The notes under the pieces: generated by a model
Database searches by the model: none
Told to the model about the DNA's origin: nothing
Seen by the model: the letters and a program-made list of their open reading frames with translations, nothing else
Position numbers and translations under genes: made by a program
NCBI GenBank assembly: GCA_026023565.1
Contig: JAPETS010000061.1
Coordinates: 62,001-108,424, forward strand
DNA: 46,424 nucleotides
DNA from: Cirrosporium novae-zelandiae
Lineage: Eukaryota
Reading direction: 5' to 3'
Shown: piece by piece, positions 13,243-35,524 of the stretch
Position numbering within the stretch: position 1 is the stretch's first letter
How the letters are laid out: each line of letters begins with the position of its first letter

Positions 13243-15367
13243 TCAAGACAAGTTATCCTCGATAATCACTTCTGCTGCCTTTTCACTAATCATATAGATA
13301 GAGGTCACAATGTAAAACCCTGGGATTTTGGGGAAAATGGACGCATCTACAACACGGAGACTATCGACGCCACGGACACGAAACTTTGCATCTAACACAG
13401 CGTTCGCATCATCGTCGGCACCAATCGGGCATGTACATGAGGCGTGATGCCCCCAGGCTTCATTACGAATAAAGTCCTTCAACTCGTCATCGGTGCTGTA
13501 ATCATCCTCGCCGGGCCAGACTTCTGTAAAGGAGCCGCCAAGTGGAATGAGATCCTTATAGATTTTGCGGCTGAATTTCATCCCTTCGAGGACGGCTTGC
13601 AAATCTTTCTCGTCGGCATCGTCGGTCGTGGTGCCTTCATCAAAGTAATTAAAATTTATGAGGGGAGTATCACGGGGGTCCGTAGAGCGGAGGGTAATAG
13701 TTCCCATATTGTTACGTGAGTGTGCTTTGAGGGTAAGCCATGCCCAATGGCGGGCATCCGCAAGCGCATCCACAGAATAACCTGGATAATAGCCTTTAAA
13801 GTATGCAGGTGCGCCGGTGACAATCACATCGGGGTTATCAGATTCAGAGGCAACGCTGGACTTGAGTATGATAGAGATGGCAAGACCAGATGTTGCATAG
13901 GTGCCTGGGTCGATTGCATTATTTTTCCATTGCTCGAGGCATGGGTCGGGGCCGGTGGTAACGTTGTTAAGCCCATTGAAGTTGCAGTTGCCTGTGATAA
14001 CAAAGTTGGAGTTGGTTTTCGCGATGACGCCAGTTTCATAGCGATCTTGAAGATTAGTACCAACGCCAGGGAGATCAACAACAACGGGGATGTTGAAACT
14101 ATTAAGTTCATCGCTCGGGCCGATACCACTAAGTTTGAGGAGTTGCGGCGTGTTGAAAGCACCGGCGGAGATGATGACTTCTTTGGTGGCGTCGACTTGG
14201 CCGGGGGTTCCGGCAGTAGCGTTTGAAGCTCGAGGGTCCGCTTTATAAAGAGATTTCCCATCTAGAAAATCAACACCGATAGCTTTGGGCTTCCCTGAGG
14301 TAGAGTTTGAGAAGCGAATTTTCGTCACAAGGCAATGGGTGCGGATGTCGAGGTGGTACTTCCGGGAGCCATCCTCATTGGTAGCACTAGCTGTATCGAC
14401 GACAAAATCACGCGGGCTGCTTCGTTTATGGGTTAGTGCATCGACAGCGATTGGAACCTGATAAAGACCTAAATCTTGGTCACGTCCAGGGGTATCTGCA
14501 TTCAAATCCAGAGCCAAGACGTGGCCAAGGCCTGCAACAGTGCTAATGACGCTTTCGAGACCCTTGCCCATGGCGGTTGCAGCAGCAGTGATCAGCGAGA
14601 GTAGCTTGGTGTCTTCCACGACAAGCTTCAAAGAAGTAAGGGAGGTTCTGAGCCAGCCGCTGAAGCCATGGCCGACAATACCGTTCGGGAGGTATTCAGA
14701 TCGCTCCAAGCGCTCCCAGTATTGCCTCATGTTATCGGCATCCCATGAATCATCCCCAGTGATGTTTTTAATGTAGTTGAAGTCGCTTTTGTGGGGGTAA
14801 ATGGTGATTTGTGCATTATGGGTAGAACAACCGCCCAAGGACCCTGTGCGAGGATACCAAATGCCCAGCCTCGTCGCATCTGCGGAAGGATCGGGTCCTG
14901 TGTAAAAGCTTCCATCGGGAAGTCGATATGTGAACTTGGAGTCCTGCGTTTGCCGGGTTTCGTTTTGATAATGATTAGTAAAGTAGTCCCACCTCATATC
15001 CTCGTAGTCACTGGCGATTAGATGGAAAGCCGGGACTTGCTGCTCGATCGCGCTTCCTTGGTCGTCACCAGCTTCGATCAGAAGAACTTTACTTCCATTG
15101 ATTGCTAGTCTTGCAGCAAGAGGTCCACCTCCGGGACCGGATCCTACCACAACATAGTCATAGTCTTCAAGGACTGTGATATTTGATGCAGAAGTAGAAT
15201 TGCTTGCACGAGCATGAAGATGCTGATGCCGTTGATGGAGAGTATCACTTACCAGCAAGTTAGTGGGATTTCAGTAGCAGGAGGTAGAGAGATGGATTAT
15301 ATACATACATGGCCGACGCAGTGCCGGAAAGGGCAGCGAGAAAGCTCAAAGCACGTATCACAAGCAT
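13243..15367 (-). CDS. Secreted GMC (AA3-like) FAD oxidoreductase, about 687 aa; exons 15367-15309, 15247-13243
   Basis: Signal peptide MLVIRALSFLAALSGTASA; YDYVVVGSGPGG FAD motif; SLGGCSTHNA; EVIISAGAFNTPQLLKLSGIGP; PGVGTNLQD; WGHHASCT; LRVVDASIFP; intron GTATGT...CTAAC...AAG. Confidence 0.95.
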
Positions 15368-16629
15368 TTTGCAAGCATATCATTCAAGGAACTTTGAATA
15401 TTAATTAAATCGACCTGGACCTCAACAGACTTCAGAATATCAAAAGAACGACTGTCTGTTATCAACCTTAACAAAAATAATGACCCAATACCTATTAATG
15501 GACTATGAACAATGAAACAAAACAACTTCAACCAAAATGATGATTGAGGATTAAATATAACTATCCAGCACGATAAGCTGATCGCGGTAGCGCGGATAGC
15601 TCTGGATTCGGACAGCAGGGATAACATGGTCTGCTGTATGATCCTTTGGAATCATTTCCTCATTTTCCCTGTAAGGGGGAATTGTGTTCTGTTCCTGTCC
15701 CTTCTTTCATAACGGCTAACAGCTGTCAAAGAACGGCATTTTATCCCGGCGATCGTCACAGCGCATTGTTGATCTAGCTCCAAGCAAGTATAGTCTTCAC
15801 TCTATGATAAAATTCAGTCGTGAATTAACATGAATGTTAGTAACGCAATCCTTAGCAAAGCTGTTTTCTGAGTCTTTTTTCCTCAATGGGCGGCGGGTAC
15901 CTGACTTTCGGATGTTTTTACACTGGGATCATCCGCACAAGGGGGTTGTTCCTCGTCAGCTACAGCAGAGGACCATGTTCACATTAGCACGATGTAATAG
16001 GGTTAGTTTCTAAACGATCAGCAATTGAGAATTGGGCGTTTCATCCTCTTCCTCAATAAAGTACCTAGGTAGTTAGCTAGTTAATCCACAGTAGATTCCA
16101 GTATCTGCTGTCGAACGAAGTAAAGAGATTTAGTCAAGCGCCGTAGTCTAATCATTCAGTGCTGACGATTTAAGCCGAATATGGCAACTTTAGCGGAAAC
16201 CTTGTGTAGGGTCTGACCCTAGCACCCTTACCCCTAAGCCCTAACAAGTTCGCCCTATCTCTCCATTTCTTGACCATGAACCCTTGCACGTACTAGTCAG
16301 ATAGCCCTCGTTGCCTAGTTAGATTTCTTGAAGTTTGATCAGCTACCTTACCTCAACGTGCTTGATGGATCCATCATTTTTAAGATTTAAATATCACTAC
16401 TACCTATTTACCCGAATCATTTTCCGGCGACCGACATTGATTAAGGTGTAGACCAGGTAATCTAGTTATGTAAATACAGTGAGAAAGATGATAGGATTTT
16501 TGGCCCCTCAAATCCATCCATAATAATGGTCAGTGTGGAATACTTAAAAATCAATAATACATACGCAATCTGACATGCGAAAATGTAGAAAGTAATTAAT
16601 TAATATGCAATTCATAGGGGAAACCACGG

Positions 16630-18248
16630 CTAAAAGGCCGACCCGCTTTTGTTGGCCCCGGGGAAGAGGTCTTGTAGTCCTTCCCAGGCCGGCTTCCCAC
16701 CAGCCGTGAGATCGGCCACAACGGGACAATTGTTCAGCTTCAAAAGCGCGACATCGAGAGCATCGGTGAGCAACTTGTAGGGTACACCGATCGTCGAGTA
16801 GATTGAGGATAGTGAATTTGGACTGGCAAACTTCATCACCTCCAAGACGAAGCACAGCAAGTTGTTCCCCTCTAGTAGCATTGTAGCATCGTAGACGCCA
16901 CCGGTAAGATTAGCAATATTAACGCCCATAAAGCTGTCAACCGATCCGACATTGCCCCCAATACTTCCGGGGATGTTAGTAAATGGAAAAATATATTGGT
17001 GGTGGGTAGGCTTACTTAGCAAGAATGGGTTCCTTGGCAACCCAGTCGATAATATCCAAATTGAAATTCAAAAGTCCATATTCAGAACCCTTAGGTGCTC
17101 GATACCAATTATCTGGAATCTTTTCCCAGCCTTCCCTGTATTCGAAATTCCCTTCTTCCCCATAAATGGCAAAGAAACTCTTGACGCAATCCTTGGCTGC
17201 TTTGTGTTAGCAATGCTTTGAAGGCATCGGAGGAAAGACTCACTTAAGACGCCCTCGGGATGCTCAGTTGAATGATTTCGCATAATTCGACCTATGAATG
17301 CAAAACCTGCGTTCCGGAAAAACAAACCCGCCACAGGACCGTAGTAAAAATATGGATTCGTCGCAACGCTCTGCTCATATCGTTTCACGCCCAACTCCAA
17401 CATGGCATCCATGCTAAAGGTGCCATTATCATCGGCCAAATTATACCATTCCATGAAGTTGTCCATTTGGAGTTTGTAATTTTCGCCGGTTACATAGAGA
17501 TCACCACGGGTAGGAGAGGCATCGGATTCGATGATATTGTGCCCACCGTCAAGGCCTTGTGGTTCCCCTAATAATCCAAGGGCATTATCGAGAATATTTT
17601 GTGCTTCATCGGATTCCCCTCCAATCGAAAACCCAGGATCTAGGGAAAGTGGGTTGCCAAGCTCAACCGTGGCATATACTCCAAGAACTGTGCCCAGATC
17701 GATTCCCATGCCCAAAACTGCCACTCGGTCAGCATCTACGTCAAATTCTAGTGCAGGTTTTCATCATTTACCATTGTGTATCGCGAGAATTGCGTCAAGC
17801 ATCTACCAAGGACTCATTAGACTGTAGGGTATGAATTACCAACCTCTAACCACTTACACTGGTAACCCCGTCGCGGGGGAGATAGCCATGATTGGCGAGT
17901 GCATTGAGTCCTGGGCAAGGCCCCCGTATGTCGCCAGCAGTAAAGTTGGGCGCCTTAAATGCATGATCGCCAGTGACTTTGGAAAGTTAGGTATGATCAG
18001 TGAGGTCGTCAAGTTTACTTACTGTCCACGGGCTCAGTCAGTGGATTGAAGGTTAAACCGGCCAGTTCAAGTTCGATTGCTGACTCCAGACTTGAAAATA
18101 AAGAGCGTTTGCCCAATCGTTTTGTTGTGCCAGCACCATGACCATGTAAATATTTGCCAATGTGCCCCAATGTTGGCATGCAATGAACCTGGGATATTTG
18201 TTCCCCAGCAAACAAAAAGAGCAGAAACGAAACAGAGAATAACTTCAT
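16630..18248 (-). CDS. Secreted heme-thiolate peroxidase (chloroperoxidase/unspecific peroxygenase family, long type), about 454 aa; exons 18248-18023, 17976-17858, 17802-17772, 17717-17244, 17196-17016, 16963-16630
   Basis: RGPCPGLNALANHGYLPRDG proximal-Cys motif in exon 2 (absent from the ORF track); HNIIESDASPTRGD; SVATNPYFYY; EKIPDNWYR; signal peptide and KR sites; five introns in consistent phase. Confidence 0.93.
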
Positions 18249-18956
18249 GATCAGAAACAAATCGTTAATGAGTGGAGAGAACTAAAGTAAAGAACGACAA
18301 GAACCCCTCAAGCTCCTTGGAGGTGGTAGAGACTGTAATGTGGTGTTCAGTTTCTTAGAGAAATAAATCACTTTTGGGAGAAGATTGATAGAAAACGATA
18401 TCTCTCAGCTTCCCCGGTTGACTCGGATCAGCTCCCCCGCCCCATACCCTCTTCTCTACGGTGACGACAGACGATATACCTCGATTGTCATTGGTTAACC
18501 GGGAAAATGTCTTGTGAAGGAATAATTTCCTATCGTAGAAGGATTTGACTACTGTATGTTTCCATGTTTCCACGCTTCCATTGCTCCCATCACTGTGGAT
18601 CTGCAGGGGGTGGGTCAGGGGAAACTCAAGGTATCTTTAATTGCTGGGTATGATATTAGTTTTTAGTCGGTGTACCTTGGCAAAAAGATGTGGTGAAGCT
18701 TACCATGGCAACTACTTTCGAAAGTACAGGATGATGGGAGTAGGATCGTCGGTAGCATTATCTTGGTTGAGTTAACCATATCTAATAAGGTTTTGACCAA
18801 GACATGTCCCCTGTTGTGCTTGTTGGGCGAAGTTTGACGTTTTTTGTAGTCGACAGCATTAACGTTAGGCTTATAGGTCTTAGGGCATGTAACGGTTAAC
18901 CTAGTTCCAATTAGGGTAAGGGTTATGGAGACTTGCCCCTTTAAGCTCTTGACTCT

Positions 18957-27810: not shown

Positions 27811-29627
27811 TCATTCATTCAGAACCCCCCTCCCCCTTTTTCCCCCATAGAGTGGATACCTCCTCACCAAGATATGCAATGCCAGATAAACACAAACCCC
27901 AAAAGCACACATGGCACTAATAACACTAAACCCCATAATATATTTTGGTTTATCCTCGGACGGAAACTACGAAAAACATTTAACTCGTTAGTTGTTCTCC
28001 TTTGCTTTACTTCTACTCTACTACACGAAAGGGCAAAAAAAAAAACTCACCAAATAGGCCCCATAAATCTGAGCCAGATTCCCCATAGCATTGACAAAAG
28101 CAAGAGATACACCACGAGTCTCGCGTCGCATGGGGGAGAAGGTGGAGGAGGCGTAGGAGAGGGATAGGGCATTTGTGGACCAGAGACCTGCGGCCATGAG
28201 GACTAGGAGGACGTAGCGGGCTGTGAAGTTGTAGACGGTGCAGACGGTTATTGCGCAGAGCATGGCGAAGAAGAGCCAGGCTGGGAAGGGAAGAGAAATA
28301 GGGGGTTAGAAAAAAAATTTCAAGAACGGGGGAGGGTAAGGGGTTCGGTTTTGGGGTTGGGAGTACGTACTAGAAATTATGAGGCCACGGTGATGTGGGA
28401 TCTTATCCATGAAGTAGCCGGTGATTGCGGTGCAGATGAAGGCGACGGCGTATATGGGTACGGTCATGTATTGGGCCATGTGGCTGGTGTATCCGAGTCC
28501 CTGGACCAGAGTCGGATAGAAGTAAGATAGGGTTGACGAACCGACAATCACCATGTACCCAAAGGTGAATAGCCAGGTTCTCCAGTTGATGACGGATTGT
28601 TTGAATGCCTGGACATGAGTGGGTTGTTGAATTTGATCTTCCTCCGCCGCTGCGGCCGGGTCCTGCTGCAGCACAAGGAGCCGATTCACAGCAATGAATC
28701 TTTCGCGCTCGGATAGCCGGGTGGAAGTTGCAGGGAAATCGAGAAGGATGAATCCAGCGCAGATGGCCCATCCGATAGTCGCGGCACCCTCAACAATAAA
28801 GAGCCATCTCCAACCACGAATGCCGTGGGCGCCCTCCAGATTACTCGTGATTGCTCCGGCAAGCAGGCCACCAAAGGCTCCGGACAGGATTGCTGCGGAG
28901 ATGTAGACGGCGAAGCGTTTGGATTGCTCGACACGCTTGTACCAGGAGGATATGATGAGGAGAATGCCGGGGGAGAATCCGGCTTCAATGCAGCCGATGA
29001 CGGCACGGAGGCCTACGAGAGCGCTGTAGGTCTTCACGGCGGCCATGCAGCAGGTGAGGGCGCCCCAGATTATCATGATGATGGGGAGGAAGAGGGAGGG
29101 CTTGGATTTTGATAGGATCATGCTGGAGGATGAATGTTAGATATGGAGTCATATATATATGTATGCGTGTGCATCATCTGGAATCAACTGACTAACTCAC
29201 TTGCTCGGAATCTCAAAAATGACATATCCAATAAAAAACACAATCAGAGCCAACGAATACTCTCCCGAATCGAGGTTCAGATCTTCTTGCATACCCGCTA
29301 TCTTGGCGTTTCCAATGCTGTAACAGGATTATTAGCCACAGGATATAAAAAAACTCGATAGGTAAAATAATGTCCAAGTGATGGGGGATTATCAATTTAT
29401 GAAGGATTGGAAAAGATGAAAGCAAATCCTTACTTTGTTCGGTCCACATAAGAAAGTAGATACATCAACCATATTGTCGGTAGGAGGAATAGGTCAATCT
29501 TCCTGATGAGATTCTTCTCCTCTTCCGGAGTCCATCGCTGTTCTTCTGCCGTGGGGAGCTCCTCTTCTACAGCCTCAAGCTCTTGGTGATTGTTATCCTT
29601 CTTCACGTCAAGGTCCTGGATAGCCAT
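27811..29627 (-). CDS. MFS transporter, anion:cation symporter (Dal5/Tna1-like) family, about 482 aa; exons 29627-29434, 29317-29201, 29122-28371, 28280-28051, 27966-27811
   Basis: LIRKIDLFLLP, SYVDRTNIGNAK, FEIPSNMIL, GCIEAGFSPG, SWYKRVE, SGAFGGLLA, GWRWLFIVEG, NAMGNLAQIYG; four GT-AG introns in consistent phase. Confidence 0.95.
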
Positions 29628-30068
29628 TTTGAAGTAAATAAATATATTGAATTGGGAAGTGATATGTCGAAGAAAGATAACATCAAGAATAAATAAGATC
29701 TAGGTAGTAGGTAGTAAGCTGATGTCTTCAATAAAGCAATGGGAGAGACCCATGATTTATGGCGGAGATGATTTGACTTATCCATAAGTGTTCACATTTG
29801 GTCAGGGACTCGATGAGGTCAAAACCTGTAAGGTTCATCGTCATGGTGGGCACAGGGGTTTAAGAAGGTGAAGAATGAATTAAAGTCTTTCTTTTGGTTG
29901 TATCTGGGGTAAAAGACATGGTACAGCATCAAGTACATGTACTCATAATGCAGTAAGCCCATAGTTTGGATATTAGTTTATAGACCGTTGTTATCTCCAA
30001 CCATTAGGATGGTCGTTTAGATTTCTTCTCCGCAACCCCACGGAAAACTTCCCTAAACTCTGTTAGAA

Positions 30069-30081
30069 CCTCGAGACGAGG
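30069..30081 (+). promoter_or_regulatory. Candidate transcription-factor site CCTCG-AGA-CGAGG (copy 1, MFS/SDR divergent promoter)
   Basis: Identical 13-mer at 33100-33112; 12/13 inverted copy at 30146-30158. Confidence 0.6.
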
Positions 30082-30145
30082 GAAACTATCATCGTATCGA
30101 GAAGAAAGTTCGAAGCTCAAATGGAATTCCACTGCGAACTTCTGG

Positions 30146-30158
30146 CCTCGTCTCGGGG
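30146..30158 (-). promoter_or_regulatory. Candidate transcription-factor site CCCCG-AGA-CGAGG (copy 2, inverted)
   Basis: CCTCGTCTCGGGG on the + strand; one mismatch to the other two copies. Confidence 0.55.
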
Positions 30159-30497
30159 CATTCCACTTTCGGACATCTATTTCTAGTCCCTCTACGAAAT
30201 TTAATCCACATACTTACCTTTTGCGAGTTCTCCCTGAAGAATACTGAAGCATACTATTGCAAAGAGAGTCAAGCATGTGGATCATCCTGTCCCTGGATTG
30301 TGGGGCACATCGTCTGTAGCAATGGAAATGGCGGATGTTTTCACCCTCGAATTTATATATAAAATATTTCCTAGAGTTTTCCCTAATCCCTCCCTATTCA
30401 TCCTCATCTTCTCTCCAGGACCATCGTCTGTTCTTTCTTGATACCCGTTCACATTTACCAAAACCCCCCAATCCTAGCAAAATAAAAGATTCACATA

Positions 30498-31463
30498 ATG
30501 GATTCAATCAATGGCTCCAACGGCAGCTCCTCGACTGCTCCAGCCACCAACCCCGTTCTCAATACCATGCCCGAACCAGGTTTCTCGTGGCAGATAACCC
30601 TCAAAGACAAAGTAATCGCAAGTAGGATCCATCCCATTGCACTCACTACATAATCCAGATGGCCAACTCTCCCAGTTACGGGTGCAAACCGTGGCATCGG
30701 TCTCGGAATCGCAGAAGTCTGTCTCGCCAACTCCGCCAAAACAGTCTACTCCCTCGACCTGATGGACCCCAGCGAAGATTTCATCGCGCTCCAAAAGAAA
30801 CATCCCAATCTTCAATATATCCAAACCGATGTCACCTCCGAACCCTCGGTCCAGAACGCCATCGATACAGTCGTGAAGAGGGAGGACGCAATCCACGGAT
30901 TTGTCGCAAACGCTGGCATGACCAAACACCAACCGGCACTAAACTTTGATAGAACCCAATTAGAGCAGCTATTCAACCTAAACGTCTTTGGAGCCTACTT
31001 TTGCGCCCAGATTGTCGCCAGGAAGTTCATTGACCTCCATATCAAGGGCTCCATAGTCTTTACTGCCTCAATGACATGTATATACCCCCCACCTCAATAA
31101 GTAACCAAACATCCTCCTAACAAAAAACCTACCTCAGCATACCGTCCTAACCGCGCTGCTCCCTCGGCCCCCTACGGTGGTACCAAAGCTGCCCTACGCA
31201 ACATGACACACACGCTCGCGATGGAATGGGCATCCCACGGCATCCGGGTCAACAGCATCTCCCCAGGCTTCGTCAAAACAGCCATGACCTATTTTGTGGA
31301 CACGGCCCCAGACTGGGATCTCAAAATGAGTTATTATGGAGGTATGCCGCGATTGGCGCTGCCCCAGGAACTCGGTGGCGCGTATGTGTATCTACTGAGC
31401 GATACCGCGAGTTATACCACCGGGATCGATATTCCGATTGCCGGGGTTGTGGGGGCGTGGTGA
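30498..31463 (+). CDS. Classical short-chain dehydrogenase/reductase (polyol/sugar-oxidoreductase-like), 283 aa; exons 30498-30621, 30676-31077, 31138-31463
   Basis: ITGANRGIG, VYSLD (acidic residue suggests NAD(H)), ANAG, LNVFG, ASM, PYGGTK (YxxxK), RVNSISPG; two GT-AG introns. Confidence 0.95.
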
Positions 31464-31972
31464 TTGATTAATTAAATAGATCAACATAGATGGAACCGAG
31501 CGAATGGATTCGGGATAAATGGCTAGATGTGGCGTTTTTTATCGATAATATTTCTTGTTAGTAGGCATTTGAGTGTGTACATGTGCATGGATAAATGGTC
31601 GCACAACATTCCAGCATGACCTTTCTCATTAATTCGACCCACAAGCAAATCGAGCAACTGTCCAATCAACCAGGACATAACCCATACCTCGCAGAACATT
31701 TCTTGGATATGGCGACGAGATTTGAAGATGCGAGCAGAGATCAGCCAGAGGCGTATATAAACTGTACTAGAACTAGGTTTTGGCACTTTCTAGGCTGCAT
31801 GACATGTGCAAGGTGTCCTGACTCGTTCTGGAAACCTAATTTTTTTTTCCTTTGTTTTCCTGGTATAGCTGAGCGAAATGATAATGAGTGAAAGTGTGGC
31901 TTTACAAAGAGGAGGTCCTGGTTTAGCATGGTAGCACATGGAGGCATTATTGTACTTGTCAAGATTCAAATC

Positions 31973-32940
31973 CTACAGATTGGCAGAAGGGATATCTGTA
32001 GCCTTCCCTGCTGATCCACAAACATCGAATTGCCATTCCATTAATTTGACCACCTTTTCCACTCCTTCTTCCATGATTTGGGTTAGTGGTAGATGGCTGG
32101 AGACTTTCAGGTATCCAAGATAGTCGCTGAGTACTAGTTTGTTGACATTGACCTTTGAGACACCACCTGCGATACACTTTTCCATCACATCATCCTCAAA
32201 GTCGTTTGTGCCGTGAAGGACTAGTCGCACGCGGCCATTGATTGCTTCACGAATTAGGCTAAGGCGGTTGAAATCTAGTTGTGGTCCTCGTGGTCCATAT
32301 TCGCCATGTACGTTGCCAAAGGCTGGAGCTAGAAAATCAACTCCAGTAGCAATGAATTCCTCTACTTCCTCTGGTGTTGTTAACATGCCCTCTAAATCTG
32401 CGGTGTCGGCGATGCCGTCCTCACCGCCTTCGATCCTTCCTGGCTCGGCTTCTGTTGCAATGCCTCTATCATGGCAATAAGCTACGAGCTCGGTTGTCTT
32501 GATCAAATTTGTCTCCTTTTCATAATGCGACATATCCACCATAATAGAATCGAACGGTAGGGTATCAGCGGCCATTCGGATTAGTTTCTCGTCCTGGGCA
32601 TGATCCATGTGGATGGAGATGGGAACGGAAGCTCGTTTCGCAGCATCGGCGGCGGTTCGTACGAGCAAGCCATTACTGAATGTTACTGCCCAGGGAAACA
32701 GTTGGATGATGAGGGGTGATTGTTTTCGTTCCGCAGCCTTGACCATGGCTAAGATATGCTCGACATTATATCTAGAAAACCAATCAGCCTCTGTCAAGGT
32801 TCTGCGGTCAATAGCAGAGCAAGGTGATACATGATTGCGGCAACAACACCATAACCTCCTCTCTCAGCAGCTTCGAGAATCCGAAAGGTCTTGTTTTGCA
32901 CCCTTTTGGTGCGCCAATTATTATCATTTGAAGTAGCTAT
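31973..32940 (-). CDS. Class II (metal-dependent) ketose-bisphosphate aldolase (FBA/TBA-like), about 302 aa; exons 32940-32831, 32771-31973; start codon uncertain (ATA at 32940)
   Basis: ILEAAERGGYGVVAAI|IYNVE, SPLIIQLFP, IHMDHA, SIMVDMS, EAEPGRI, AFGNVHG, LVLHGT, KVNV; intron 32830-32772 GT-AG. Confidence 0.9.
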
Positions 32941-33099
32941 GCTAGACCGTTAGATTTAGGATTTCTCAAAATGTTAGTTAAAATGTAGAATATGCTCGTA
33001 TTGAATAATTGTAGAGTAAAAAGTCAGCATTGTTTTAAGTAACATGAAGCATATCTAGTTCATTATTAGCACTCGAAGATCCCACCATCATCCTCAGGC

Positions 33100-33112
33100 C
33101 CTCGAGACGAGG
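33100..33112 (+). promoter_or_regulatory. Candidate transcription-factor site CCTCG-AGA-CGAGG (copy 3, aldolase promoter)
   Basis: Identical to 30069-30081; lies 160 bp upstream of the aldolase coding region. Confidence 0.6.
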
Positions 33113-34498
33113 CAAATGAAGATGAATCTCGCAGAGATTTCCCTACAACCTAGTCCCATCTTTATCAGTGAGAAATCAACAGCTGTCAATCCATTAATTA
33201 TCCGACAGCTGAACCAACGAAAATGAGAATCGGGATGAGATACCCAATTGAGAGAAATTCGTGATAGTAGTCTAGCCGTGTAGCATTCGAGTGATGGCCA
33301 TATTTTGCTGCCTTGCTGCCTTGTGCCGTGACGCCGTGATACCGTGATGTTGTGGTGCCTCAGGCTTTTGTTCAATTGTGGTTAGATCAACAAATCCTTT
33401 CTTCCCTTTCTTTCCTTTCTTTCCCTTACCTTCCCCTCCCCCTCCCTCACCTTTCTTCCTCTCCACACCTCCTCAAGCCTAATTCATCCTTGCTAACTTT
33501 TTCCTTACTGCCTTGCAAAATACATTGGTTTATATTGATCCACATTGGTTCACAGTGCATCAGGACGGATACATATGCATATCTCAGCTGCAAATTATGA
33601 TTTCCCTGCAATAATATCGTCTTCGGAGTTATTCGCTTTGTTCCCTGCCTACCAGCAGTAAATGTTCAACACACTCCGAAACAAGAAGTACCAAGGTTCA
33701 AGTATCTCAAAAGCGGGTATTCAATGTCCCCCCCCCACTGAATCTAAACCCCTCTAAACCCCTCCTATCACGGATGTCCGGTCCCAGCCCCACAAGTCGT
33801 CCAAGAAGTTTTATCAAAGGCTAAGACCAATAAGTGCTTACAGTTAATATATTATTATGTGAGGGCGCTTTATAACTCGAGAATGTTTGCATCATAGGAA
33901 ATTAGAAGGGCGGCAACTTGTGCCAACTCCTGGAGGGGCAAACTATTTCCTGGAACTAACTGAGGATGGCCTGGTATCCGTCCATCAAGACAAAACAAGA
34001 TAGAATTTAATATATGCTTATTTTAGGACTCTGATAGACCCATACCTTGTCCCTTGGCTTGGTCAAGCGGCATTGAAACAATCTTCGCAGGTACTCATCA
34101 AAGACATCTTAGTCCAACAGAGTATATTTCCCATGCCGTTGGACCAATGGACTATTCACAGCTTCTCCATAAAACGGATAACATCGGGACAATAACCTCC
34201 AAGCCGCTCCTCGGGTACTGACACCCAAACAGGTCTTCCAAGGCCATGGCATTGTCTTAATTTATACAAGCATGGGCGTAACACGGGCGTCATGTTAAAC
34301 CTGAAAGTAGCATGGAGGACTGATTCAAGGTTGGGTCTAGCATGGTCCCCTCACATAAAAGAGCATCTAGTTTGTCTCAATCCTGTTTATCAGACCCTCG
34401 GGATTTTTTTCATCTAAAGACCACTTCATTAGCATATACTTGTACCTCCCACTTGTTATATTCAATCATTCGTTACTCAATCGGTCGCTACTATTACA

Positions 34499-35524
34499 AT
34501 GCGCCTCTCTACTATCTTATCTGCTTTGGCTAGCTGTGCTGTTGTGTCCGGATGCCCTTTTAGCAATATTACGACGAGAGGCCTATACCCAAGAGCTCAA
34601 AATCCAGTTTATGACATCTACGACTTTCCTAATGGCACCTGGGTCGAAGGCCTTGCGGTCCGTTGCAACGGCGAGATCTTAGCTGGTCTATTGAGCTCAC
34701 CCCAATTAGTTCAAATTGGCCCCTGTCCAGGCTGCCCCGACAGCTCGCTTTCAGCCAACGTAGTCTTTGAGCCCTCGGGGGCAACCTCTGTCTCTAGCAT
34801 CACCGAGTTCAAGGATGACGTCTTTGCTGTAGTCGTCGGAAACTTCAGCATCCCCCAACTCGCTTCCATCGCCGGCTCATATTCCATCTGGGAAGTAGAC
34901 ATGAACTATAATCCCGCCCGGTCCAGGATCATCACCCATATTCCTCCAGCAGCTTGGCTCAATGGCATCACAACACTCGACTCACAGCATGTCCTCGCCT
35001 GCGACTCCACCCTCGGCGTCGTCTACCGTGTCGATGTTTCCAACGGCACATACACCCAAGTAGCCAACGACACCCTAATGTCCCCCCCTCCGGGTGTCTA
35101 CCCCCCTCTCGGCATCAACGGCATCAAAGTCCGCAACAGCAACCTCTACTTCACAAACTCGATAGGCCAATCCGTAAACGTAATGCCCATCGACTCTCAA
35201 GGCTACCCAACCGGCGCAGCCACAACCATCGCATCCGGCTTCGCAACAAACGACTTTGCCATTGACAAAAACGGAGACCTGTTCGTCACCACGGATCCTC
35301 AGAACAGTCTTATTCAAGTAACCCCCTCCACGGGCTCCTATGTCACCGTTGCAGGAAGCGCCAATTCGACTGCACTTGAGGGGCCCACGGCCGCGCGGTT
35401 CGGACGTGGTTCTACGGACAAGTCGGTCATCTATCTTAGCACGGATGGAGGCGTCGTTGCCCCGGTCAATGGCGTTGTGCAGGGGGGGAAGATCAAAGCT
35501 GTTTGTGTTGACACTGAGGCTTGA
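34499..35524 (+). CDS. Secreted six-bladed beta-propeller protein (SMP-30/gluconolactonase-like fold), 341 aa
   Basis: Intronless ORF with signal peptide; GTWVEGLAVR, WLNGIT, DSTLGVVYRVD, GINGIK, LYFTNS, NDFAID, GPTAARFGR motifs typical of this fungal family. Confidence 0.88.
   Translation: MRLSTILSALASCAVVSGCPFSNITTRGLYPRAQNPVYDIYDFPNGTWVEGLAVRCNGEILAGLLSSPQLVQIGPCPGCPDSSLSANVVFEPSGATSVSSITEFKDDVFAVVVGNFSIPQLASIAGSYSIWEVDMNYNPARSRIITHIPPAAWLNGITTLDSQHVLACDSTLGVVYRVDVSNGTYTQVANDTLMSPPPGVYPPLGINGIKVRNSNLYFTNSIGQSVNVMPIDSQGYPTGAATTIASGFATNDFAIDKNGDLFVTTDPQNSLIQVTPSTGSYVTVAGSANSTALEGPTAARFGRGSTDKSVIYLSTDGGVVAPVNGVVQGGKIKAVCVDTEA

Follow-up and report, generated by a model that had tools for sequence, protein, structure and literature searches.

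A conserved promoter element places a transporter, a dehydrogenase and an aldolase-fold gene of Cirrosporium novae-zelandiae in a larger candidate catabolic regulon

Why do neighbouring genes for a major facilitator superfamily (MFS) transporter, a short-chain dehydrogenase/reductase (SDR) and a class II fructose-bisphosphate (FBP)-aldolase-fold protein carry the same 13-bp promoter element, and what might they degrade together? The genes lie in a 46,424-nt stretch of the C. novae-zelandiae genome (assembly GCA_026023565.1, JAPETS010000061.1, positions 62,001-108,424), referred to here as the window. The element, CCTCGAGACGAGG, occurs in the divergent MFS/SDR promoter at 30069-30081 (+ strand), at distances of 417 bp to the start codon of the SDR gene and 442 bp to that of the MFS gene, and again at 33100-33112 (+ strand), 173 bp upstream of the likely aldolase ATG at 32927. 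A 12/13 inverted copy, CCTCGTCTCGGGG (CCCCGAGACGAGG on the minus strand), is present at 30146-30158 (- strand), 340 bp away from the SDR start codon. A sequence-only reading of the window had reported these three positions and no others, and our scan of the whole window agreed on both counts, with no further match to CCTCGNNNCGAGG at one mismatch or fewer. Scored with a matrix trained only on SDR promoters of other fungi, the three sites rank at the top of the window (20.6 bits at 30069, 19.7 at 33100 and 19.6 at 30146), the next window score being 12.1 bits. A possible weak extra site, TTCTCGATACGATGA (30089-30103, - strand), scores 10.9 bits, which is in the background range, and is not established.

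Taken alone, the window count is marginal: three sites against 0.73 expected, a number reached in 4 of 100 shuffles. The exact 13-mer has three copies in the 31.4 Mb of the genome, two in the window and one on contig C36 (21.8 bits), and the reversed-pattern control has none. This genome-wide scan had been suggested by the sequence-only reading, and the third copy that it returned lies upstream of a gene of the D-erythronate dehydrogenase (DenD) family. Degenerate forms of the motif stand at background across the genome (pattern versus control: 48 vs 40, 30 vs 31, 30 vs 36 and 31 vs 35) and mostly match coding or unrelated DNA, so isolated degenerate matches carry little meaning. The flanks of the exact copies differ, which argues against the motif being a fragment of a repeat, a concern raised beforehand.

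The motif is a real, conserved promoter element, and its decisive support is cross-species conservation. An alignment of SDR sequences was used to scan metagenome data for loci orthologous to the SDR locus; of the 84 that were confirmed, the best 80 were kept, and the 62 of these with at least 500 nt upstream were reduced to 37 mutually unalignable groups. At two mismatches or fewer, the window 13-mer was detected in 26 of the 37 SDR/MFS promoter groups. Dinucleotide shuffles reached a mean of 0.88 and a maximum of 3, the reversed pattern gave 0 and coding DNA gave 2. At one mismatch or fewer the 13-mer was retained in 13 groups (0.08 in shuffles). De novo motif discovery, which had also been proposed in advance, returned CGAGACGA as the top 8-mer (16/37 groups), with CTCGAGAC also a top word. 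For the aldolase, 17 loci gave nine promoter groups after removal of L103 (promoter common with the SDR), L106 (5' end outside the locus) and L128 (a fragment), and all nine carried the 13-mer at two mismatches or fewer (0.21 in pair-block shuffles). The idea of a shared element serving a catabolic regulon is therefore upheld by its retention upstream of orthologues. The matrix consensus is (c)CTCG-W-N-R-CGAG(g), with CG-N3-CG invariant and YCG/CGR flanks; its recovery of 36 of the 37 training promoters is circular and was not used as evidence.

Other genes in the orthologous loci also carry the element. Sites of at least 14 bits were found upstream of the kinase DAK (3/3), RpiB (2/2) and a second SDR (1/1), but not of BUD22 (0/4) or TRS65 (0/2), and in 1 of 134 background tiles. 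The genes are clustered in many ascomycetes; in Malbranchea and Sclerophora the aldolase and SDR genes have adjacent locus tags, consistent with this. That the regulon is real we hold with high confidence. Strong sites (15.5-19 bits) were additionally noted beside other genes in the orthologous loci (L055:265, L059:6654, L083:12238 and L096:14133).

A candidate regulator is encoded within the clusters themselves. A gene combining Zn2Cys6 (PF00172) and Fungal_trans_2 (PF11951) domains, with a main open frame of about 540-690 aa, was present in 39 of the 80 orthologous loci and in every one of the 11 groups whose length would reveal it; these 11 long clusters also contain the aldolase (6), DAK (2) or transketolase (2). 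Sites of at least 14 bits were found within 800 nt upstream of the regulator in 16 of 22 groups, some of them common to a divergent enzyme gene. In C. novae-zelandiae the orthologue lies on contig C1 (approximately 938,140-940,580), nested in the clade of cluster transcription factors (FastTree support 100) and apart from three paralogues, and is divergent from a DAK gene 65% identical to the cluster DAKs. The element would consist of two CGR triplets in everted orientation, separated by 3 bp, with the 13-mer as its strongest form. It resembles the half-sites of FarA/FarB (CCTCGG) and Upc2 (TCGTATA). The sequence-only reading had suggested a dimeric, possibly Zn2Cys6, regulator: a candidate factor and, in other fungi, sites in its own promoter were found, and binding is the part that we infer. 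It is probable, in our judgement, that the element is bound by this cluster-encoded, autoregulating Zn2Cys6/Fungal_trans_2 activator, with CreA repression on top.

CreA-type words are enriched in the same promoters: of the 37 groups, 12 contain ATCTGGGG and 11 contain GCGGAGAA, where the top 8-mer of shuffled sequences reached 6-8. The MFS/SDR promoter of the window contains CTGGGG at 29904-29909 (+ strand) and a second site assigned by the SYGGRG pattern, CTCCGC, at 30028-30033; SYGGRG is the CreA site (PMC5468973).

The route proposed from the sequence alone consisted of the trio only. This proved too narrow, as the regulon appears to include the regulator, DAK, RpiB and probably more. In C. 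novae-zelandiae its genes are spread over at least three contigs. Membership of RpiB, predicted from other fungi, is borne out on contig C65, where a 17.3-bit site stands 386 bp ahead of the single RpiB gene; a TPI-family (TpiB-like) gene lies directly downstream of RpiB. The exact C36 copy stands 217 bp upstream of a gene that passes the DenD cut-off (NF043036: 334.6 vs 325). A contig scan for the DenD family, limited to the best 80 of 599 loci, returned only prokaryote-titled entries, among whose neighbours, with one representative of each neighbour cluster scanned, were OtnI (10 loci), LtnD (7), OtnC (5) and OtnK (4). A post hoc inspection of C66:64100-69840 (L291) revealed a tandem Lra1-like aldose dehydrogenase, SGL lactonase and aldo-keto reductase (AKR), each with upstream sites (12.1 bits for the dehydrogenase, 14.8 for the lactonase, and 15.3, 11.6 and 11.3 for the AKR). 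The comparison background holds two sites of at least 14 bits in 130 kb, one being that of RpiB. The SDR of this trio has L-rhamnose 1-dehydrogenase as its best family (NF053807; exon pieces of 60.6 and 244.8 bits, the cut-off of 400 being set for the whole protein), and the trio could be the rhamnose dehydrogenase locus of this fungus.

The aldolase gene (PF01116; 31973-32927, - strand) has a main exon, exon 2, at 32771-31973 that is intact, and an exon 1 ending at 32831. The ATG at 32927 is in good context and does not share the reading frame of the conserved N-terminal exon; an intact start is given only by micro-exon models with weak donors, and the database version of the protein begins in exon 2. 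The 5' end (32927-32831) may reflect an assembly error, a micro-exon or recent inactivation. The fold is clear from a structure model of homologue P0003 (78% identical to the window protein), a TIM barrel with the Asp/His metal ligands of class II FBP and tagatose-bisphosphate (TBP) aldolases. The model has a TM score of 0.91 to 3PM6, the closest structure, whose title says just 'putative' aldolase, and 0.8-0.86 to characterised enzymes. The zinc and catalytic residues D86, H87, H185, H216 and N238 are invariant in 37 sequences.

The phosphate pockets are a different matter. In class II FBP aldolases the 1-phosphate is held by Ser211, Thr233 and Lys184, with Na+ as an alternative to the lysine, and the 6-phosphate by Ser49, Arg259 and Arg280 (PMC10665668). 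Pairwise alignments place Asn219, Lys241 and Gly189 at Ser211, Thr233 and Lys184, and Phe55 and Leu244 at Ser49 and Arg259. The clade motifs are nearly fixed among 119 homologues (HGTN in 118, NVNK in 119, HGEY in 112 and FPW in 118), and the protein misses all NCBIfam FBP/TBP cut-offs (186.5 bits vs 343). With both phosphate pockets lost and the zinc ligands kept, ketose-phosphate cleavage is unlikely, and this inference from the residues points to an enzyme that may act on an unphosphorylated substrate. The assignment of ketose-phosphate cleavage made from the sequence alone is not supported for this clade, in which both phosphate-binding sites are replaced.

Fungal aldolases of this type form a single clade (support 100). 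Prominent among the next profile matches after it are DUF1537-fused aldolases of the 2-OtnC/LTD type, which contain HGASG and NTE motifs that the window aldolase lacks. The DUF1537 kinase (PF07005) was not found in the genome search, which is not proof of its absence. A second member of the clade (HGTD, NINK) is encoded at C58:20370-21300 (L050), unclustered and without a strong site, and a separate long FBA lies on contig C38. Plasmid homologues of the aldolase are distant, the best-ranked matches being 35-42% identical and all below 60%. The prokaryote neighbourhood scan retrieved one short contig, within a cyanobacterial metagenome-assembled genome; this 2.4-kb contig (L151, CAZZYE010001265.1) encodes a 72%-identical fungal-type aldolase with a 15.7-bit site and is probably fungal contamination.

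The SDR (30498-31463, + strand) is a classical enzyme of 283 aa with exons at 30498-30621, 30676-31077 and 31138-31463, and its spliced translation equals the database protein P0123. Orthologues are 64-80% identical, and among solved structures it comes closest to carbonyl reductases and mannitol dehydrogenases (E ~1e-31), which suggests a polyol-dehydrogenase-like enzyme of the mannitol/arabinitol/carbonyl reductase neighbourhood. Its best-ranked plasmid matches are 31-36% identical, all below 60%, and the Atlas gave generic names only. Some fungi contain a tandem SDR paralogue (approximately 60-68% identical; P0121 and P0122; L091 and L103), with fusions annotated in two species and a 16-bit site upstream of the paralogue in L103. 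The MFS transporter (29627-27811, - strand; PF07690) is ACS/Dal5-like, with 482 aa in five exons (model: 29627-29434, 29317-29201, 29122-28371, 28280-28051 and 27966-27811). Its best NCBIfam match is the D-galactonate transporter TIGR00893, with 127 bits on one exon and under the cut-off of 395. In 24 of the 30 orthologous groups with at least 2 kb upstream, the MFS gene is divergent from the SDR gene.

For nearly every member of the regulon, a characterised relative works on D-erythro four-carbon (C4) compounds, and for this reason we favour a C4 polyol-plus-acid regulon. It would degrade erythritol, erythrose or erythronate to erythrose-4-phosphate and dihydroxyacetone phosphate (DHAP), a reading to which we assign a probability of roughly 0.45; the lower erythrulose route, taken by itself, is likely. 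In the polyol arm, the AKR would reduce erythrose to erythritol, the window SDR would oxidise the polyol to erythrulose, and DAK, TpiB and RpiB would yield erythrose-4-phosphate for transketolase. These three families (DAK, TPI-like and RpiB) convert erythrulose to erythrose-4-phosphate in Yarrowia (PMC9835291, PMC5992420). In the acid arm, the aldose dehydrogenase and lactonase would act first, the ACS carrier would import the aldonate, and DenD would yield 2-oxo-tetronate. The aldolase-fold enzyme would then remove CO2 from this oxo-acid in its unphosphorylated form, by way of a zinc enediolate, to give dihydroxyacetone, in the manner of a phosphate-free 2-OtnC, and DAK would turn dihydroxyacetone into DHAP. 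The gene families and sites are observed, and all reactions, as well as the substrate, are proposed from them.

Several observations count against the D-erythro reading. Sites are missing where they might be expected: no strong site is present in the promoter of the TpiB-like gene or in the C1 intergenic region between DAK and the regulator, and in other fungi a near site was found upstream of transketolase in just one of three groups, of 2-hydroxyacid dehydrogenase in 0/1 and of FAA hydrolase in 0/2. TpiB is absent among the 80 orthologous SDR loci, and DenD, the lactonase, the AKR and the aldose dehydrogenase were never found there either, so the membership of DenD, TpiB and the C66 genes rests on this genome. 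The C66 trio, moreover, emerged post hoc from pattern matches that were at background level. As to the enzymes, the aldolase start may be frameshifted here, the SDR falls under every NCBIfam cut-off shown (DthD, 136.8 vs 286), the fungal aldolase clade joins the 2-OtnC group weakly (unfinished quick tree, support 85, open fork), and no precedent was found for a phosphate-free 2-OtnC reaction. Finally, the Euf1 elements of the yeast erythritol cluster (GGAAAGCCGCY; ATGCA, CGGAT and CGGCTT) are unlike CGAGACGA and CTCGAGAC (PMC10935855, PMC11394100, PMC5624910).

The erythritol cluster of Yarrowia lipolytica (EUF1, EYD1, EYK1, EYI1/EYL1 and EYI2/EYL2) is nevertheless similar in its gene families, namely a controlling Zn2Cys6 factor that also has a fungal TF domain, a dehydrogenase, DAK, RpiB and a TPI-like protein. 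Euf1 itself is larger, at approximately 950 aa, than the cluster factors (PMC10935855, PMC11394100, PMC5624910), and its best Pezizomycotina matches are approximately 25% identical (Table S1, supplement of PMC5624910). The aldolase also sets the clusters apart, as the word does not occur in the searched text of two Euf1 papers. Euf1 also raises carriers of the allantoate/tartrate/nicotinate type, a transketolase isoform and seven formate dehydrogenases (PMC10935855). These targets echo the carrier and transketolase seen here, and the formate dehydrogenases hint at a one-carbon product.

With the bacterial tetronate pathways (DenD/LtnD, OtnI, OtnK and OtnC, and the three-step 2-OtnK/2-OtnC route) and plant LTD, the system shares a DenD-family gene, here preceded by the motif, and an F_bP_aldolase-domain protein. 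2-OtnC is an F_bP_aldolase-domain decarboxylase of 2-oxo-tetronate 4-phosphate (bioRxiv 2025.05.18.654769, PMC12994016). Unlike 2-OtnC/LTD, the aldolase here lacks HGASG and NTE and no DUF1537 kinase was found in the genome, so that any decarboxylation would precede phosphorylation. With class II FBP, TBP and sulfofructose-phosphate aldolases it has the TIM barrel and zinc ligands in common, whereas both phosphate sites differ.

The RhaR/LRA and GaaR systems and the A. niger glucuronate genes likewise combine a transporter, dehydrogenases and a pathway Zn2Cys6 activator with CreA-type sites, but use different enzymes, and none of the binding sites given in the available text of PMC5468973 matches the element. 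The A. niger glucuronate pathway was considered and no link was found in the accessible text; its GluF is a 265-aa SDR (PMC4870679, PMC5814732). A suspected link to A. nidulans AN1886/AN1888 found no support, as AN1888 gave no match and AN1886 is a 246-aa LRA1-like SDR (PMC7532622).

The strongest competitor keeps the same regulon and regulator but takes the branched plant pentose D-apiose as substrate, which we consider somewhat unlikely. In a reductive arm, the AKR would give apiitol, the SDR apulose, and the phosphate-free aldolase formaldehyde and erythrulose, followed by DAK-TpiB-RpiB; in clusters with transketolase, apulose phosphate could be the cleavage substrate of that enzyme. In an oxidative arm, the aldose dehydrogenase and the lactonase would act together with apionate import by the ACS carrier and with oxidation at C2 of the DenD type. 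The apiose reading would account for the co-regulation of erythrulose-phosphate enzymes with an aldol-cleaving fold that lacks phosphate pockets, and it accords with the aldolase, DAK and transketolase being mutually exclusive in the 11 long clusters. One bacterial apiose route ends in L-erythrulose and LerK/LerI/DerI. Bacteria also have a route that uses transketolase and others that are oxidative and proceed through apionate; ApnO takes apionate, D-erythronate and D-ribonate alike (PMC13753588). However, GH140 apiosidase (PF13204) was not found in the genome, no ApnO-like gene was recognised in any cluster, and each step would be new fungal chemistry.

Less probable still is a C5 aldose or aldonate that is D-erythro at C2/C3, such as L-lyxose/L-lyxonate from ascorbate breakdown, or D-ribonate. 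Oxidation to an oxo-pentonate, decarboxylation by the aldolase fold to a tetrulose and then DAK-TpiB-RpiB would link the acid and erythrulose arms into one linear path, and the altered pocket, where Asn replaces Ser and Lys replaces Thr, could, we suppose, hold a diol instead of a CH2-phosphate. SDR-type 3-dehydrogenases work on C4-C6 sugar acids (PMC12994016), and the best family of the C66 SDR, L-rhamnose 1-dehydrogenase, would fit, although that link is post hoc. Such a route leaves the polyol-dehydrogenase-like SDR and the AKR without a clear role.

The original proposal, in which an imported compound is oxidised to a ketose, phosphorylated and then cleaved by ordinary class II chemistry (for example L-erythrulose-1-phosphate to DHAP and formaldehyde, or a tagatose-type hexose phosphate), now seems improbable. 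The fold and zinc ligands are those of FBP/TBP aldolases, DAK provides a kinase in the regulon, and Lys241 could bind phosphate in a new way; but the equivalents of Ser211, Thr233, Lys184, Ser49 and Arg259 are replaced, HGTN, NVNK and FPW are near-universal in the clade, and every FBP/TBP cut-off was missed. That the motif arose by chance or from a dispersed repeat, for which only the marginal window count and the background level of degenerate forms speak, is largely refuted by the 26/37 and 9/9 unalignable promoters against shuffled, reversed and coding controls.

The regulon is conserved, has a named candidate regulator and is apparently undescribed: no description of the motif or cluster was found in the open literature, although subscription papers, DAP-seq datasets or supplements could hold one. 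A 2026 sugar-metabolic model of N. crassa and A. niger (PMC13158570) lacks, in its main text, the terms 'erythr', 'rpiB', 'tpi', 'apiose' and 'threon', and this area of fungal carbon use therefore looks unmapped. We see an even chance that the locus represents a missing fungal D-apiose or tetronic-acid pathway under a Zn2Cys6 factor that regulates itself through an everted CGA-N3 site and has not been described before, with a class II aldolase fold rebuilt for unphosphorylated substrates (releasing formaldehyde from apulose, or decarboxylating a free 2-oxo sugar acid). If true, the orphan family to which PDB 3PM6 belongs would thereby gain a function. The analysis names a candidate regulator and a site, lists the genes, offers a testable function for proteins widely mislabelled 'tagatose-bisphosphate aldolase', and gives a hint of class II aldolase chemistry that needs no phosphate and would be useful in biocatalysis. 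The MFS/SDR region is a candidate for a compact inducible bidirectional promoter.

Some further observations concern the genome and the rest of the window. A degenerate match, CCCCGAGACGGGG, at C1:366035 (L004) lies in a convergent gap, approximately 900 bp beyond the end of an open reading frame (ORF) that presumably belongs to the sugar-lactone oxidases. Contigs C35 and C47 gave identical matches at near-identical coordinates, suggesting a duplicated contig in the assembly. On the divergent side of the aldolase promoter region, an intact 363-codon ORF (34433-35521, + strand) has a signal-peptide-like start and repeat-like spacing, has no Pfam or NCBIfam match, and is absent from orthologous loci. 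At 13246-18300 (- strand), a secreted GMC oxidoreductase is encoded near a heme-thiolate peroxidase (PF01328), possibly as a peroxide-supplying pair.

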